From Spirochaetaceae bacterium (GTDB taxonomy: Bacteria > Spirochaetota > Spirochaetia > B11-G9), in contig WGCU01000026.1 of the NCBI GenBank assembly GCA_015493635.1, forward strand, positions 7,718 through 71,717: DNA of 64,000 nt, read 5' to 3'. The first letter of the stretch is position 1; each line of letters opens with the position of its first letter. Both the position numbers and the translations under genes were made by a program. Shown piece by piece: positions 19,612 to 31,115 of the stretch. Below the pieces are notes generated by a model. It saw only the letters and a program-made list of their open reading frames with translations, did no database searches and had not been told where the DNA came from.

Positions 19612-20478
19612 CTATCCGCTTTTTATAAGAATAATTGCAATAAGAGATAAGGAGACTGCAGCTATTCTTAAAAGTGTTAATTTTTCTTTATAGATGATGG
19701 CTGAAAGAAAAATAGGAATGAGAATTGAAAGGGCAAAAATGGGCTGAACAAGTGCCATACTGCCTGCGGCGAATGCTTTCAGGACAAAAATATATCCAAA
19801 AAAATTAAGAACTCCTATGGATCCCCCAATAATAAAGATTTTTGGAGTTTTGAAAGTCTTTTTGCGCTGTTCCGGAGGTATCCGTGTTTTGTAAAGGAGG
19901 AATGAGATACCGGTAACTATTGAGTAAGAGATAAAAATATAGATAATTTTATCCGTTTTTGTCGATGCCAATTTACCTGCTGTCATGGAGAAAGATGTGC
20001 AAACCGCAGCAAGAAGGGCAAATCCGATGCCTGCCAAGGGTGTTTTGTTTATACCCTTTACGTGCTCCATGGACAGAAGGATCAGCACAAAAACCGAAAG
20101 TGCTGCTCCTGCCCATTGTTCCGGAGCCGGGGTTTCACGGAAGAATACCACTCCGATAATAATAACAATAACGACATTTGATTTATTTACCGGGAATACA
20201 ACAGCCGCAGGTGCACGTTTTAAGGCGTTGAATTTTGAAAGAGCTCCAAGGGCAAAAAATGTGCCGTTAAACAGTGCAAAGGGCAGGGCAGAGACAAAGA
20301 GTGATAGATTGTGGTGATCCAGAATAAGCACGGTGAGAGAGCAGAGAACAACGGAAAATGCAGATATAAGGACTACTCCCTGGGTAACAAGTTTATATTC
20401 CGCGGCAATTTTATATAGAAAATTAAGCGATCCGTAAAAAAGTGTTGCGGTGATGCTGTATATAAACCATAACGGCAC
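19612..20478 (-). CDS. DMT-superfamily (EamA-like) membrane transporter
   Basis: 288 aa, 10 predicted TM helices in two repeated halves. Hydrophobic throughout, with an EamA-like pattern. Confidence 0.75.
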   Translation of the reverse strand: MPLWFIYSITATLFYGSLNFLYKIAAEYKLVTQGVVLISAFSVVLCSLTVLILDHHNLSLFVSALPFALFNGTFFALGALSKFNALKRAPAAVVFPVNKSNVVIVIIIGVVFFRETPAPEQWAGAALSVFVLILLSMEHVKGINKTPLAGIGFALLAAVCTSFSMTAGKLASTKTDKIIYIFISYSIVTGISFLLYKTRIPPEQRKKTFKTPKIFIIGGSIGVLNFFGYIFVLKAFAAGSMALVQPIFALSILIPIFLSAIIYKEKLTLLRIAAVSLSLIAIILIKSG

Positions 20479-25332: not shown

Positions 25333-26784
25333 TTACGCTGGAGTAGATTCCGTTGTGCTCTTGGAAGGAGAAGCTGGAAGGAGGAGTTTTACCGTTGTTC
25401 CCTGCTTTTCCCTTGAATCCACTGAAATATGCGCATGGTAGTTTTTTAGAATAAAATAAGCTGTTGACAACCCAATCCCGATTTTCTCTTCTTCAGTTGT
25501 AAAAAACGGGTCAAATATGTTGTGGAGAAATTCCGGTTTGATACCTTTCCCGTTATCTGATATTGTAATGTGCACATACTTTTTCTCCTTTCTTGAGTTC
25601 CTGCACAAAACCGAAATGTGTCCCTCTCCCTGAAGAGTCTGAACTGCATTTTTAATGATGTTTTCAATAACACAGATAAGTTGTTTTTTATTAAAGGTTA
25701 TTAACCAGAGGTTGGTATCCGATATAAAATCCAGTTTGATCCGGGTGCCCTGTACAATTTTTAATGCCGTTTCTTTTATCACCGCTGCGGCATCCAGAAT
25801 TACTGCTGCAGGTCTTTCTCCTCTGGAAAAAGTAAGTAATTTTTGAGACAGATCCTGTGTTTTATTCAGAATCCCTTCTGCGTTTTCAAGGAAGGGATAG
25901 CCTTTAGCAGCAGGAGAAGTATAGAGTTTTGCGAGACTGACATTCCCCAAAATACCAGTTAACAAATTGTTGAAATTATGAGCTATTTCGCCGGCTATAA
26001 AACTGAGAGATTCAACTTTCTTCAACCGGTTGTTTTCGGTAATGTCATGAAAAACAAAGACAATACCTTCAAAACCCTCTTGTTTGTTTCTGATGGGAGC
26101 CGTGCTTCCCTCAATTTCGTATTCAGTATTGTCTGATGAAACTAAAACAGCTTGATGGAGCTGATGAGCAGATAATTCTAAAGTTGCTATTTGCTTGATC
26201 CCGGTTTTTATGGGAACTCTTGTCCTGGTGATAAGTTTTACAATACTGCTGAAATTCCTGCCCATTGCTTTTTGTTCCGGTATACCGGTATATAATGCTG
26301 CTGTATGGTTAACGAATGTAATAATACCGTTTTTATCTGTGGTTATAACTCCATCCTCAATACTGCGCAGGATTGCTTGCAGCCATGCTTCATTTTTTCG
26401 TATTTTTATTTCGTCTCTGTGCCTTTGTAGAGCAATGTCAATAGATATCTGTAATTCTTTTTTTTTGAATGGTTTTAGGATATATCCATAGGGAGATTCA
26501 TTCATAGCCCGTTCCAGAGTTTTTTGATCGGAATGAGCAGTAAGAAAAAGGATCGGAATATCCCGTACTTTTCTGATAGCGGCAGCAGTTTCAATTCCAT
26601 CCAGCTTCCCCTTAATGATAATATCCATTAAAATGAGATCAGGATGCAATTCTCCCGCAACGGTAACCGCTTGCTCCCCTGTGGCACATATATCCGTAAT
26701 ATGGTACCCCAGTGTCTGAAGCCGGTCCTTTAGTTCCATAGCTACAATACTTTCATCTTCAACAATTAAAATTGTATTCAACAT
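25333..26784 (-). CDS. hybrid signal-transduction protein: N-terminal REC, PAS, HisKA, HATPase_c
   Basis: REC (ILIVEDESIVAMEL...DLILMDIIIKGKLDG...KPF), PAS (ILRSIEDGVITTDKNGIITFVN), H-box (FIAGEIAHNFNNLLTGILG), ATPase G-boxes. Confidence 0.85.
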   Translation of the reverse strand: MLNTILIVEDESIVAMELKDRLQTLGYHITDICATGEQAVTVAGELHPDLILMDIIIKGKLDGIETAAAIRKVRDIPILFLTAHSDQKTLERAMNESPYGYILKPFKKKELQISIDIALQRHRDEIKIRKNEAWLQAILRSIEDGVITTDKNGIITFVNHTAALYTGIPEQKAMGRNFSSIVKLITRTRVPIKTGIKQIATLELSAHQLHQAVLVSSDNTEYEIEGSTAPIRNKQEGFEGIVFVFHDITENNRLKKVESLSFIAGEIAHNFNNLLTGILGNVSLAKLYTSPAAKGYPFLENAEGILNKTQDLSQKLLTFSRGERPAAVILDAAAVIKETALKIVQGTRIKLDFISDTNLWLITFNKKQLICVIENIIKNAVQTLQGEGHISVLCRNSRKEKKYVHITISDNGKGIKPEFLHNIFDPFFTTEEEKIGIGLSTAYFILKNYHAHISVDSREKQGTTVKLLLPASPSKSTTESTPA

Positions 26785-26802
26785 ACCAGCCTTTTCATAT
26801 TC

Positions 26803-28158
26803 TCAGATTTTAAAAACTATCTCAAATCTTGCACCGGAGTCTGTATGTACTGTAAGGGTACCGTCTACTTGATCAACAAGAGATCTCACGAGGGTGAGAC
26901 CCAGGGTTTCCACATCTTCAAGGTTGGAAGAAGTGTCCAATCCTTTCCCGTTATCCGCAATGAGTATAACCGCACTTACTGGATCAAGTCTTTTAATCTC
27001 TATGGTAATAGTCCCCTCTTTTGTTTCATCAAATGCGTATTTTATTGAATTTGATACAAGTTCATTTATAATAAGCCCCAACGGTATAGCCTTTTCAATA
27101 GTAAGGGGAACATTTTCTATTTTTAAGTTCAGTTTTATGGGATAATCACTGGTATTATACGCGGATAAAAGTTCGGAAGTTAAGGACTCTATATAATTTT
27201 TCAAGTTAATTTGAGCAAGATTATCAGATTGATACAGGTTTTCATGAACCATTGCCATAGAAAGAATCCGATTCCGGCTGTCAAGGAAATAAGATTCAGT
27301 CTCCTTATCCTGTATTTTTTGTGATTGAAGATAAAGCAGACTGGAAATAATTTGCAAGTTGTTTTTTACCCTATGATGAACTTCTTTAATAAGGACTTCT
27401 TTTTCCCGTATCTGTTTATCCAGGTTCTTGTTGATTTCTATCAGGTCAGCTGTCCTTTCTTTTATCTGGGACTCGAGATTCCTGTTTGAATTTTGTAGTT
27501 TCCTTTTTAATTGTTCAAGATCTTTAACATGGGTACCAAGCAGAATATTTTTGTATTCTACGATGGTCTGTGTCTTTTCTCTTGTTCTTTCAAAGGAATA
27601 CGCAAGAATTGTTACAACACTGTATGCAGCGAGAAAGCGGATTCTGTATCCCCATGATTTTTCAAAAGAAAGATGTAACTCACCGCTGAAAATATAGAGC
27701 AGTATTGTAATGGAAATAAGGACCATTGCTGCAATAAATCCCTTTCTACTTCCCATTAAAAATGAGGTTATAAGAGGGAATACAAAATACCAGAGATACC
27801 CCGCTCCTCCCTCCCATTTTAAAACCATCAGCAGTAAAAACAGACTTCCAGCGGCAAAAATACTTAGATTTATGATTAATTTGAAATTCTTTCCCTTGCG
27901 CAGGTACAGAATCCCGGCAAAGAGAATAGATGCGACAGACATATCAGCAAGGCCGACTGCCATGTTGCCCAGACGGAGTGCATCAGTACCAAGGGGTACA
28001 AGCGCTGATATACTGATGGTACCTATTGCATTTAGCATGTTAACTTTTCTTATTAATTCGACATTATGAGTATCAGTTAGACCGCTGGTAAAATAATTAC
28101 GAAGGAGATTGTGGCTTTTATCAAGGATTTTTCTTGTGAATTCTTTTATAGTATCCAT
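26803..28158 (-). CDS. membrane sensor histidine kinase, HisKA_2-type (HWE/HisKA_2 + HATPase_c)
   Basis: About 6 N-terminal TM helices and a coiled coil. EVHHRVKNNLQIISSLLYLQ (HisKA_2 H-box). ATPase motifs NELVSNSIKYAF, DNGKGL. Confidence 0.85.
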   Translation of the reverse strand: MDTIKEFTRKILDKSHNLLRNYFTSGLTDTHNVELIRKVNMLNAIGTISISALVPLGTDALRLGNMAVGLADMSVASILFAGILYLRKGKNFKLIINLSIFAAGSLFLLLMVLKWEGGAGYLWYFVFPLITSFLMGSRKGFIAAMVLISITILLYIFSGELHLSFEKSWGYRIRFLAAYSVVTILAYSFERTREKTQTIVEYKNILLGTHVKDLEQLKRKLQNSNRNLESQIKERTADLIEINKNLDKQIREKEVLIKEVHHRVKNNLQIISSLLYLQSQKIQDKETESYFLDSRNRILSMAMVHENLYQSDNLAQINLKNYIESLTSELLSAYNTSDYPIKLNLKIENVPLTIEKAIPLGLIINELVSNSIKYAFDETKEGTITIEIKRLDPVSAVILIADNGKGLDTSSNLEDVETLGLTLVRSLVDQVDGTLTVHTDSGARFEIVFKI

Positions 28159-28205: not shown

Positions 28206-28868
28206 TTATAATTCATGATCTTCAAGAAAGCTGTAATATTCATTTCCGGTGAATATGATGTGATCCAGCAGTGGTACTCCAAGAATTTCACCGGCTTTTT
28301 TAATTCTGGATGTGATGGATGAATCTTCTGTTGAAGGGGCAAGATTCCCTGAAGGGTGATTGTGGGCAATGATTATTGCAGCTGCTCTGTCTTTTAAAGG
28401 GTCCGAAAAAATCTCCCGCGGATGAACGAGGGTTCTGTTAACGAGTCCTATTGATACAACCCGGATGTATTTAACTTCGTGTGCGCCGTTAAGAGAAAGG
28501 CAGATAAAATGTTCCTGTTCTCTATCTCCGTAATGACGGATCAGGGGAAGAATATCTTTTGGAGATGTTATTTTATTCCGTTTTGGGCAGAGTACCCTCC
28601 GTGTCAGCTCAAAAGAGGCCGCTATAAGGGCTGTTTTTGCAATCCCCAGACCTGATATGGTTAGAAGTTTTTCCGGTATCATACCATAGATATCAAGATC
28701 AATAATATTCAGCAGCTCTTCTGCCAGAGAGAAAACATTCTTTCCTTTTATTCCTGTGCCGAGCATAATGGAAAGGAGTTCTTTATCAGAAAGGGTCTGT
28801 GCTCCGTATTTTATGAGCTTTTCTCTCGGCATTTTTGATGCAATTGTTTGTTTCTTGTCATGCTTCAT
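28206..28868 (-). CDS. radC: RadC-like JAB/MPN-domain protein (UPF0758)
   Basis: PREKLIKYGAQTLSDKELLSIMLGTG (HhH N-terminal domain) and the JAMM motif HNHPSGNLAPSTED. Start set at the internal ATG because the longer ORF would run through the upstream terminator hairpin. Confidence 0.8.
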   Translation of the reverse strand: MKHDKKQTIASKMPREKLIKYGAQTLSDKELLSIMLGTGIKGKNVFSLAEELLNIIDLDIYGMIPEKLLTISGLGIAKTALIAASFELTRRVLCPKRNKITSPKDILPLIRHYGDREQEHFICLSLNGAHEVKYIRVVSIGLVNRTLVHPREIFSDPLKDRAAAIIIAHNHPSGNLAPSTEDSSITSRIKKAGEILGVPLLDHIIFTGNEYYSFLEDHEL

Positions 28869-28911
28869 ACCCTTTATGACAATGGAAATGTACCTGGTGC
28901 TTGAAATAAAT

Positions 28912-28949
28912 AAACGCTGCAACCGCATCAATAGCAGTAAGCAGCGTTT
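28912..28949 (-). terminator. intrinsic terminator hairpin (9-bp stem AAACGCTGC/GCAGCGTTT) downstream of the histone-like gene
   Basis: Inverted repeat 28912-28920 / 28941-28949. On the minus strand it is followed by ATTTATTT. It lies between the stop of the 61-aa gene and the RadC start. Confidence 0.5.
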
Positions 28950-28985
28950 AAAACAATAAATAATAGGTTATAACAGAACTTATTG

Positions 28986-29171
28986 TTAGATATCCCGTTC
29001 CTGAACAGTTTTTCTTTTTTCTTTCTTGGCTTTTTCTATTGCTTCATCGCAAATTTCTCTAATTTTGTCTGATAGTGCATCAATTACTTTTGCAGAGCAT
29101 TTGAGATCTCCAGCTTCTTTAATATAATTCTTTACTTTTGAAGCTACAACGAGGGTTTCTTTTTCTGCCAT
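28986..29171 (-). CDS. bacterial histone-fold singlet protein (DUF1931/HBb-like), 61 aa
   Basis: MAEKETLVVASKVKNYIKEAGDLKCSAKVIDALSDKIREICDEAIEKAKKEKRKTVQERDI. The helix-strand-helix pattern and C-terminal ...A.....RKT+...D+ parallel the archaeal HMfB ending ...ARHAGRKTIKAEDI. Strong RBS AGGAG 7 nt upstream of the ATG at 29171. Confidence 0.6.
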   Translation of the reverse strand: MAEKETLVVASKVKNYIKEAGDLKCSAKVIDALSDKIREICDEAIEKAKKEKRKTVQERDI

Positions 29172-29356
29172 ATACAAACTCCTAATTAAACATTTTTTAC
29201 TGCGAGAAGTACAAAAATACATTCTAAACGCAGTTGCCCTCATTCTATCAGGTTTTTTACAGGAATCAATCCATTATGGACTATTTTTTATCTTTTTATT
29301 GTGATATTGAAGAAAATCATCTTTCAGTTTGTCTTATTAAGGAAAAGAGATGTCTT

Positions 29357-30265
29357 ATGTCTATAATTGTTGTACTGTTAATTATCCTCTCAGCTCTCTT
29401 TCATGTGTCATGGAATACCCTTGGAAAGAGTAGAACCCCGTCTATTGCCTTTTTTACAGGCACTGCTCTCTTTGCCTCTATTATTTTTATACCTGTCTTT
29501 GTGTATATTATGCCTCCTCCTGTACTTCCTCTGAAAGCCTGGTTCTTTTTTATCCCTGCAGGAATTTTCCAGTCAATTTATTATTTTGGATTGAGTGGTG
29601 GATACAAAAATGGTGATATGTCCTATGTTTATCCGCTTGCTAGGGCTCTCCCTGTGCTTTTTATTCCTGTTATTAGTATTATGCTCCATGTGGGGTCAGG
29701 TATAGCTATTTCTGCCTTTATAGGTATGTTTCTCGTGTTTTCCGGTTGTTTACTCCTGCCGTTGGATAGAAAAGGGCAGTTTCATCTAAAGAATTATTTT
29801 ACAAAGGCAACTTCGTTTTCATTTCTTGCCGCCCTGGGTACAACTGGCTATACTTTTGTGGACAGTGAGGGGATGAAATATCTTTCCGGGGTCTTCAATG
29901 GCCGGGGTTATCATCACCTGTATCTTGCTCCGGTGGTGTATATTGCGTACGAAATGTTGATATCGTTCTGTGCAAGCTTTTTGTACGTTCTCCTGAACAA
30001 AAATGAGAGAAAGAATTTTGTAATGATTCTTCAAAAATCCAAATTTACAACATCTCTGGCTGGATTATTTATCCTTGTTGCCTATGGAATCATTCTTATG
30101 GTTTATCCCCTTGTTACCAATGTAAGTTTTGTTACAGCTTTCAGGCAGATCAGCATACCAGTCGGGGCTTTGACTGGTATATTTATTCTCAAGGAAAAGA
30201 TGAATATTGGTAAAATTGCAGGATCGTTCATCATCTTTTTGGGCCTTGTGCTTGTGTATATGTAA
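29357..30265 (+). CDS. DMT-superfamily (EamA-like) membrane protein
   Basis: 302 aa from the internal ATG (MSIIVVLL...). 9-10 TM helices in two halves. The upstream 41 codons of the longer ORF lack an RBS and are not hydrophobic. Confidence 0.65.
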   Translation: MSIIVVLLIILSALFHVSWNTLGKSRTPSIAFFTGTALFASIIFIPVFVYIMPPPVLPLKAWFFFIPAGIFQSIYYFGLSGGYKNGDMSYVYPLARALPVLFIPVISIMLHVGSGIAISAFIGMFLVFSGCLLLPLDRKGQFHLKNYFTKATSFSFLAALGTTGYTFVDSEGMKYLSGVFNGRGYHHLYLAPVVYIAYEMLISFCASFLYVLLNKNERKNFVMILQKSKFTTSLAGLFILVAYGIILMVYPLVTNVSFVTAFRQISIPVGALTGIFILKEKMNIGKIAGSFIIFLGLVLVYM

Positions 30266-30446: not shown

Positions 30447-31115
30447 TCAGCTTCTGCCGAAATACCGGTCGTCTTTCAAGGCCTTTTTATAGAGCTTCAT
30501 GACAATAATACCGGCAATAATAAGCAGCGGAACTACCACCAGTGAAAGTGTTCCCCCGTAAAACAGGAAAAAATCATAAAGACCGTGTATTGCCACGGCA
30601 CTGATAAAGCCAATTTCAAGGTATCCTTTCCCCTCAAATTTGGATTTTCCGATAAAATAGCCCATAATACCTGAAGCGGAAGCATGGAGGGGAACAGCGG
30701 AAAGTCCCCTGATAAGGAGGACCGTTATCGAGCCGAAGCTGTAAAACAGATTTTCGAAGAACGCAAATCCCAAACTGACGGTTATTGTATAGAGTATTCC
30801 GTCAGTAACTTCATCAAATTCGGTTTTGTTAAAAATAAAAAGCTTGATAACGGTTAATTTTATTCCTTCTTCAACAACTGCGGCAATGATAAAGGCCTTA
30901 TACAAAGCCGAAGCAAGATGTGAGTTCCCGATAAGAAAGGGAGAGATAAATATTTCTATGAGGGCCGCAGGGAGAACAGATATAAAACCTAAAAGGAAGG
31001 TCTTAAGAATAAGCGATGGCGGTTCCTTTTTCTGATTATCCTTACGGTAAAAAAAAACGACAAGCAGCAGGGAAGGAATAAACGCAAGGAGTATGTTTAT
31101 AACAAGCAGATACAT
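30447..31115 (-). CDS. PrsW-family intramembrane metalloprotease
   Basis: Conserved motifs VVEEGIKL (EExxK), GFAFFENLFY (FxxxEN), AIHGLYD (HxxxD) and a multi-TM topology. Confidence 0.75.
   Translation of the reverse strand: MYLLVINILLAFIPSLLLVVFFYRKDNQKKEPPSLILKTFLLGFISVLPAALIEIFISPFLIGNSHLASALYKAFIIAAVVEEGIKLTVIKLFIFNKTEFDEVTDGILYTITVSLGFAFFENLFYSFGSITVLLIRGLSAVPLHASASGIMGYFIGKSKFEGKGYLEIGFISAVAIHGLYDFFLFYGGTLSLVVVPLLIIAGIIVMKLYKKALKDDRYFGRS

Follow-up and report, generated by a model that had tools for sequence, protein, structure and literature searches.

An α3-truncated bacterial dimer-type histone encoded by a chromosomal gene of an uncultured spirochaete

The window, by which we mean the whole 64,000-nucleotide stretch of DNA that was analysed, encodes on its minus strand a 61-aa protein that is an α3-truncated 'bacterial dimer' histone, with HBb/Bd0055 of Bdellovibrio bacteriovorus as the prototype; this category is one of sequence clustering, and the protein is assigned to it here by best matches. 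The original description of the gene in this segment is confirmed in every particular, and its reading as a histone is supported. Taken as a whole, the data are best explained by an HBb-type histone that acts as a homodimeric, DNA-bending, abundant nucleoid-associated protein, a reading to which we assign a probability of roughly 80%. The gene is chromosomal, its host being an uncultured member of the Spirochaetia with a relationship to Sediminispirochaeta, and it is under strong purifying selection. The features of the locus are collected in Table 1.

Table 1. Features of the histone locus and other genes of the window discussed in the text
Feature	Coordinates	Strand	Basis or remark
Histone CDS, stop codon included	28986..29171	-	Translation, PF00808, HBb/HLp best PDB matches, purifying selection
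Shine-Dalgarno AGGAG	29183..29179	-	Read from sequence
Sigma-70-like promoter	29242..29269	-	-35 TTGATT, 16-nt spacer, extended -10 TG-n-TAGAAT
Intrinsic-terminator-like hairpin + UUUAUUU	28904..28950	-	10+5 bp interrupted stem; RNA fold
RadC	28206-28931	-	Longest ORF, TTG at 28931
Two adjacent sensor kinases	25333-28158	-	Downstream of RadC
Divergent EamA-family transporter	29276-30265	+	TIGR03340 147.5 vs cut-off 288
PrsW-like intramembrane protease	30447-31115	-	134.8, below NCBIfam equivalog cut-off 225
DUF3783 protein, 76 aa	31116-31346	-	Abuts PrsW-like protease, directly upstream of it
Second EamA gene	19612-20478		EamA family

Translation of the gene gives MAEKETLVVASKVKNYIKEAGDLKCSAKVIDALSDKIREICDEAIEKAKKEKRKTVQERDI, followed by the stop codon. 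The product is indeed Lys-rich, as had been stated, with 12 Lys and 3 Arg among its 61 residues (pI 8.58; 6.9 kDa). In the mechanical ORF list, the gene is mis-extended to 85 aa, beginning at ATG 29243, exactly as had been pointed out. This extension is an artefact, given that 71 of 80 related loci match AGGAG as the upstream motif (L001, a duplicate of the window, was left out of the start codon and Shine-Dalgarno counts), that the in-frame upstream extension differs among these loci, ranging from 0 to 103 codons, and that the homologues are 60-64 aa long, with the N-terminus MA(E)KE. The start codon aligned to that of the window gene is ATG in 79 of the 80 loci; in the window itself, the proposed consensus ribosome-binding site AGGAG-N7-ATG is present, with TTTGTAT as the 7-nt spacer in front of the ATG at 29171. 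Comparison of the gene with 79 relatives yielded a median pS of 0.87 against a median pN of 0.16 (pN/pS ~0.18), which argues that the gene is real; for the closest species-level relative, the values were 0.64 and 0.01, respectively.

The promoter upstream of the gene was recognized in a consensus scan with 9/12 matches plus the TG of the extended -10, and would imply a 5' UTR of ~60-65 nt, counted from the predicted transcription start. Its TTGATTC and TGaTAGAAT blocks are kept in the window and in loci L002, L003 and L004, whereas the surrounding intergenic DNA diverges. A terminator hairpin belonging to the gene itself, also part of the original prediction, was recovered downstream: the interrupted stem (28950..28911) begins 36 nt past the stop codon and leads into UUUAUUU; folding of region 28890-28990 of the minus strand (101 nt) gave -27.5 kcal/mol (z = -4.8 vs. 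shuffles). A simple terminator scan missed this hairpin because its rule allows no interrupted stem. Hairpin and T-run are common to the four aligned loci (the window and L002, L003, L004), and both are still present in L004, where the sequence of the stem is completely different. With the ribosomal-protein genes of the window as the reference, the CAI of the histone gene is 0.729, within the ribosomal range and above that of all 38 non-ribosomal genes of the window (median 0.625), a weak indicator given that the gene comprises only 61 Lys-rich codons. With its own promoter, Shine-Dalgarno sequence and terminator, the gene is a standalone transcription unit, and these signals, together with the CAI, are consistent with high expression.

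When the protein was compared with Pfam, PF00808 (CBFD_NFYB_HMF) scored 28.4 bits vs. a gathering score of 21.4 (E 2.1e-6), a significant match to a histone-fold family, which had been set as a test of the original prediction; PF00125 (Histone), DUF1931 and TAF all remained under their Pfam gathering scores for the 61-aa protein. Two identities were rejected, namely, DUF1931 (14.6 bits vs. a gathering score of 21.8; a single 61-aa domain, not two folds) and the archaeal nucleosomal histone (NCBIfam NF043032, 34.4 bits, under the cut-off of 50; α3 truncated). Among PDB sequences, the top phmmer match was HBb/Bd0055 (8FVX, 8CMP; E 1e-11, ungapped over residues 5-61), followed by HLp of Leptospira perolatii (9QT0; E 6e-10, one gap), Thermococcus HTkC (9F2C; 4e-5), viral and Asgard histones, and NF-YB (E ~0.03). 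When an 84-member family profile was used instead of the single sequence, HBb again came first (73 bits, 1.7e-19), ahead of HLp (61 bits) and HTkC (42 bits).

Structure prediction, the other test set for the original prediction, agrees with the sequence matches, and the claim of a 61-aa histone-fold protein thus stands on PF00808, PDB sequence matches and the AlphaFold2 and Foldseek results alike. The AlphaFold2 model built from the 84-member alignment has a mean pLDDT of 82.5; residues 2-21 and 27-50 are helical in it, and the short tail is not. Every Foldseek match to this model is a histone-fold protein: the first five PDB matches are all HBb (TM 0.75-0.78, 52% identity), succeeded by HLp (TM 0.76, 41%), HTkC and then NF-YB, H2B and MHF. 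The architecture is α1-L1-α2-L2-α3, with α3 formed by the terminal ERDI turn; DSSP calls two helices only because the third helix is this single turn. In α3-truncated histones, α3 is one turn of 3-4 residues and α2 is ~4-5 residues shorter than in nucleosomal histones (PMC11390915, PMC12701072); the window protein likewise stops one residue past the Asp of the RD clamp in loop L2 and has an α2 shorter than that of archaeal HMfB. The single-turn α3 is thus a hallmark of the subfamily rather than a failure of the fold prediction. The expectation that automated annotation would leave such a gene as a generic hypothetical holds in part: some homologues are named 'hypothetical protein' and the NCBIfam histone model is below its cut-off, whereas others carry histone names (the names found are hypothetical protein, histone-like protein, NFYB/HAP3 family transcription factor subunit and histone H3/H4).

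Single-domain bacterial α3 histones fall into two groups, the 'bacterial dimer' or HBb type and the face-to-face (FtF) or HLp type; HBb-type histones bend DNA as dimers, whereas FtF histones are tetramers that wrap about 60 bp. The bacterial-dimer signature consists of α1 lysines at HMM positions 11, 13 and 17 together with RKTxxxD, and the group lacks the FtF dimer-dimer residues R48 and N52 (Schwab et al., PMC11390915); in HLp, the tetramer interface depends on a conserved Arg and Asn at the end of α2, R49 and N53 (PMC12701072). In the family of the window protein, the α1 lysines K12 and K14 are invariant and K18 is present in 81 of the 84 members. The L2 motif R53-K54-T55...D60 is present as well, with K54 and T55 invariant and R53 and D60 in 82/84. 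At the FtF-equivalent positions, the window protein has K47 and E51; across the family, position 47 is N/S/K/A/D/H and position 51 is D/S/A/E, and the Arg/Asn pair is absent in 84/84. HBb ranks first for the single sequence, for the family profile and for the structure. Thus, the α1 lysines, the RKT loop and the HBb contact residues are kept and the FtF pair is absent, which makes the protein HBb-type and neither of the Leptospira type nor a DUF1931 protein. Of the likeness to DUF1931/HBb-type proteins that had been proposed, the HBb part is borne out by the top PDB match, and the DUF1931 part fails on its Pfam score. Similarly, the proposed likeness to the Leptospira histones is upheld to the extent that HLp is the second-best match, but it does not extend to the FtF signature.

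Comparison with HBb (PDB 8FVX, 8CMP, 9EZZ, 9F0E) shows 52% identity, ungapped over residues 5-61, and common features including the length class, the short α2, the single-turn α3 and the RKT loop. We mapped the residue roles described for HBb by Hu et al. (PMC11317129) onto the window protein. Eight of the 10 DNA-contact residues are identical (HBb S9, K10, K12, K16, S24, K52, T53 and R57 correspond to S11, K12, K14, K18, S26, K54, T55 and R59), most of them invariant or nearly so across the 84 members; the other two are replaced, T8 by A10 and N22 by K24. The RD clamp R51-D58 of HBb is found as R53-D60, in 82 of the 84 members, and the dimer core V11, L31, I35, L38 and I59 corresponds to V13, L33, I37, I40 and I61, positions that stay hydrophobic throughout the family. 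Differences from HBb lie at both ends and in the host. The window protein has two extra N-terminal residues and ends at the Ile after the clamp Asp, without the 5-residue C-terminal tail of HBb, which we take to be VIDHL, the PDB alignment reaching residue 59 of the 64-residue chain. The host is a free-living or environmental spirochaete, whereas that of HBb is the predatory Bdellovibrio.

The bacterial FtF histones, HLp of L. perolatii (PDB 9QT0-2) and LA_2458 of L. interrogans, share with the window protein the phylum, the α3-truncated fold and the RD clamp, and the N-terminal α1 is nearly identical to that of HLp (AEKDTLIVASKVKAYIK in the window protein vs. AEKETLVVASKVKNYIK in HLp). Where HLp has R49 and N53, the window protein has K47 and E51; its L2 loop reads RKT, against RTT in HLp, and its L1 is longer by one residue. 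In Leptospira, the histone gene is located in a neighbourhood with SMC, MAP and DUF350, none of which was seen among the annotated ORFs around the window gene. With archaeal HMfB, the common features are the histone fold, the RKTxxxxD motif and basic α1 residues; the proposed parallel with the HMfB C-terminus is supported by 31% identity and a pairwise E of 8e-6. In the pairwise alignment, α2 is a net 4 residues shorter than in HMfB (a 7-residue gap offset by a 3-residue gap). The alignment stops at HMfB residue 60 of 69, with α3 cut to one turn, so that the 9 C-terminal residues of HMfB, which make tetramer and hypernucleosome contacts, are absent. DUF1931 proteins (PF09123; Aquifex AQ328, Thermus 1WWI) show distant histone-fold similarity but are pseudodimeric doublets, in contrast to the singlet found here, and they lack the DNA-binding signature residues (PMC12701072) that are present in the window protein.

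To survey relatives, one genome per species was scanned; 181 relatives were confirmed, and the titles of the 80 of these that were kept are nearly all Spirochaetia MAGs. The kept relatives come from Sediminispirochaeta sp. (98%), Oceanispirochaeta, Spirochaeta, Treponema/Treponematales, Breznakiellaceae and an Olavius endosymbiont, and there is a named homologue in Thiospirochaeta perfilievii. Complete Spirochaetia genomes with the gene include OY764216.1, OY764342.2 and OZ246985.1. A 147,991-bp contig encodes an identical protein, as does a Logan contig on which the neighbouring genes are the same. The spirochaete host assumed in the original prediction is consistent with these nearest relatives, Sediminispirochaeta sp. 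and other Spirochaetia MAGs, and with a RpoC cluster-mate labelled 'Spirochaetes bacterium'. A scan of viral contigs found no relatives, and a phage-histone reading was dropped on that ground. In an exhaustive family-profile search of 1.84 billion representatives, 1203 relatives were detected at E <= 1e-3; the sampled top matches all have GRKTV..RD, are HBb-like and lack the FtF signature. The best-scoring matches of this search are not singlets but tandem doublets of an HBb-like α3 histone domain (P0114, P0117, P0122, P0123, P0125 and P0132, of 126-148 aa; P0116, P0119, P0120 and P0121, of 216-274 aa), some with an N-terminal Cys/His-rich (ZZ-like) domain ahead of the histone domains. These doublets are HBb-type pseudodimers, distinct from the DUF1931 doublets.

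The window is ordinary chromosome, with rpoB/rpoC-sized ORFs and a block of ribosomal-protein genes at 43.6-64 kb, three tRNAs, ClpB, a TRAP transporter and two sensor kinases among its other genes. The GC content is 0.34 at the histone gene vs. 0.425 for the window, a dip for which the Lys/AAA-rich coding sequence and the AT richness of the intergenic DNA account; the histone locus showed no further signs of foreign origin, in a window that carries rpoBC and ribosomal-protein genes. Neither a second histone-fold gene nor HU was found within the 64-kb window. The immediate neighbours of the histone gene are RadC downstream and the divergent EamA transporter upstream, an arrangement common to the window and L001-L003 only. 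The longest RadC ORF, like the 240-aa call on the Logan contig, overlaps the histone terminator hairpin (28911-28950); a shorter RadC start (ATG 28868) is more likely because the NCBIfam RadC match begins at its residue 15. The name 'phosphonate utilization associated' is not transferable to the EamA protein, given that its TIGR03340 score is well below the cut-off (Table 1). One of the two sensor kinases combines MASE6 with a HisKA_2/HWE-type kinase, and the other is a hybrid with receiver, PAS and ATPase domains.

Across 81 loci, no conserved neighbour, partner or operon was found; thus, the gene stands alone, as would be expected if its product were homomeric. Elsewhere, the most frequent neighbours are an Lnb-like membrane protein together with a PreP peptidase, in 25 loci, and, in 14 loci, a pentapeptide-repeat protein. 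The Lnb_N/5TMH_Lnb membrane protein gene divergently adjoins the histone gene in 25/81 loci (e.g. L040:1719-5867 and L028:6223-6918, among L002-L081), with a PreP-like M16 peptidase further upstream in 21/81; the pentapeptide-repeat protein is convergent and directly downstream in 14/81, at a median distance of 63 bp. Some members of the pentapeptide-repeat class are DNA mimics.

Judging from its homology to HBb, the protein most likely acts in the nucleoid as an abundant homodimer that bends or coats DNA irrespective of the DNA sequence. Two chains would form a head-to-tail histone-fold homodimer via antiparallel α2 helices, with V13, L33, I37, I40 and I61 in the interface. Both loops, L1 as well as L2, together with the initial turn of α1, would then contact the phosphate backbone of the minor groove without sequence specificity, through S11, K12, K14, K18, K24, S26, K54, T55 and R59, with the R53-D60 clamp fixing loop L2. 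The dimer is predicted to bend, and thereby compact, DNA without forming nucleosome-like wrapped particles, and the histone would be an abundant nucleoid-associated protein; for dimerisation and DNA binding, as for bending and abundance, the prediction is carried over from HBb, to which the protein is 52% identical.

How HBb binds DNA is a matter of dispute, with an end-on filament (PMC10627809) set against bending (PMC11317129). In the end-on mode, dimers would not bend the DNA but, by polymerising, would sheathe it in a straight nucleohistone filament, as Hocher et al. (2023) proposed on the basis of a crystal structure of Bd0055 with DNA; the residues on which this mode depends, in the two loops and in RKT, are conserved in the window protein, and the sequence does not discriminate it from bending. 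However, later crystal structures of HBb, molecular dynamics and single-molecule work indicate that individual dimers bend DNA (PMC11317129; restated in PMC12701072), so that we regard the filament as unlikely. Conceivably, the protein could instead be an FtF histone like HLp, with dimers pairing into a stable, torus-shaped tetramer that wraps ~60 bp. FtF histones are common in Spirochaetota, the phylum of the host; HLp is the second-best match by both sequence and structure; and the window protein ends as HLp does, with the clamp Asp plus one hydrophobic residue. Nevertheless, this architecture is quite unlikely: the R49/N53 interface of HLp is replaced by K47/E51 here and the pair is missing from the entire family, the window protein has K50, R59 and I61 at the positions of HLp S52, T61 and F63, the family profile places HBb 12 bits above HLp, the alignment with HBb needs no gap, and Schwab et al. 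(PMC11390915) place the proteins of class Spirochaetia in the bacterial-dimer group.

A role as an NF-YB/HAP3-type subunit of a sequence-specific transcription factor, or as a histone-fold scaffold for protein-protein contacts without DNA binding, is suggested by the name 'NFYB/HAP3 family transcription factor subunit' given to some homologues and by the weak NF-YB matches in the PDB. The name, however, merely follows the title of the Pfam family, and the similarity to HBb is ~nine orders of magnitude above that to NF-YB. NF-YB requires an NF-YC partner and a longer α3/αC, whereas the window contains no second histone-fold gene and no partner is conserved across the 81 loci; moreover, the residues for nonspecific backbone contact are invariant. 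Such a role is, accordingly, highly improbable, and the HBb-type, DNA-bending homodimer remains the preferred reading.

Two cysteines set the Spirochaetia proteins apart from HBb or connect them with it. Thr23 of loop L1, a DNA-backbone contact in HBb, is replaced by Cys25 in 77 of the 84 members, with more distant members keeping Thr, and Cys39 of HBb is kept as Cys41 in α2 in 67/84; the respective codons are at 29097-29099 and 29049-29051 on the minus strand. It is a long shot that Cys25 and Cys41 confer a thiol-dependent property beyond those of HBb, by which DNA binding or dimer packing would be sensitive to redox state or modification in this Spirochaetia clade. If true, this would mean switchable histone-based chromatin in Spirochaetia, possibly with the histone as the principal nucleoid protein.

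HBb and HLp are the only bacterial histones characterised structurally and functionally, HLp being the second (December 2025; PMC12701072). Bacterial-dimer histones have been reported in Spirochaetota, class Spirochaetia (Schwab et al. 2024, PMC11390915), and the DNA-binding residues of HBb have been found conserved in Spirochaetota relatives (Hu et al. 2024, PMC11317129); the genera involved here were not found in the supplements of Schwab et al. The HBb-type subfamily is thus already known from Spirochaetia, and the window gene is a solid but unsurprising addition to it. For the window itself, the gene boundaries and the annotation are corrected, and knowledge of bacterial chromatin is unchanged. 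The window gene belongs to a large, very strongly conserved HBb-type clade. Spirochaetota carry both architectures, FtF tetramers in Leptospirales and dimer-type histones in Spirochaetia, and so constitute a natural system for comparing the two; the homologue in Thiospirochaeta perfilievii, which has a 3.67-Mb assembly, puts the question within experimental reach.
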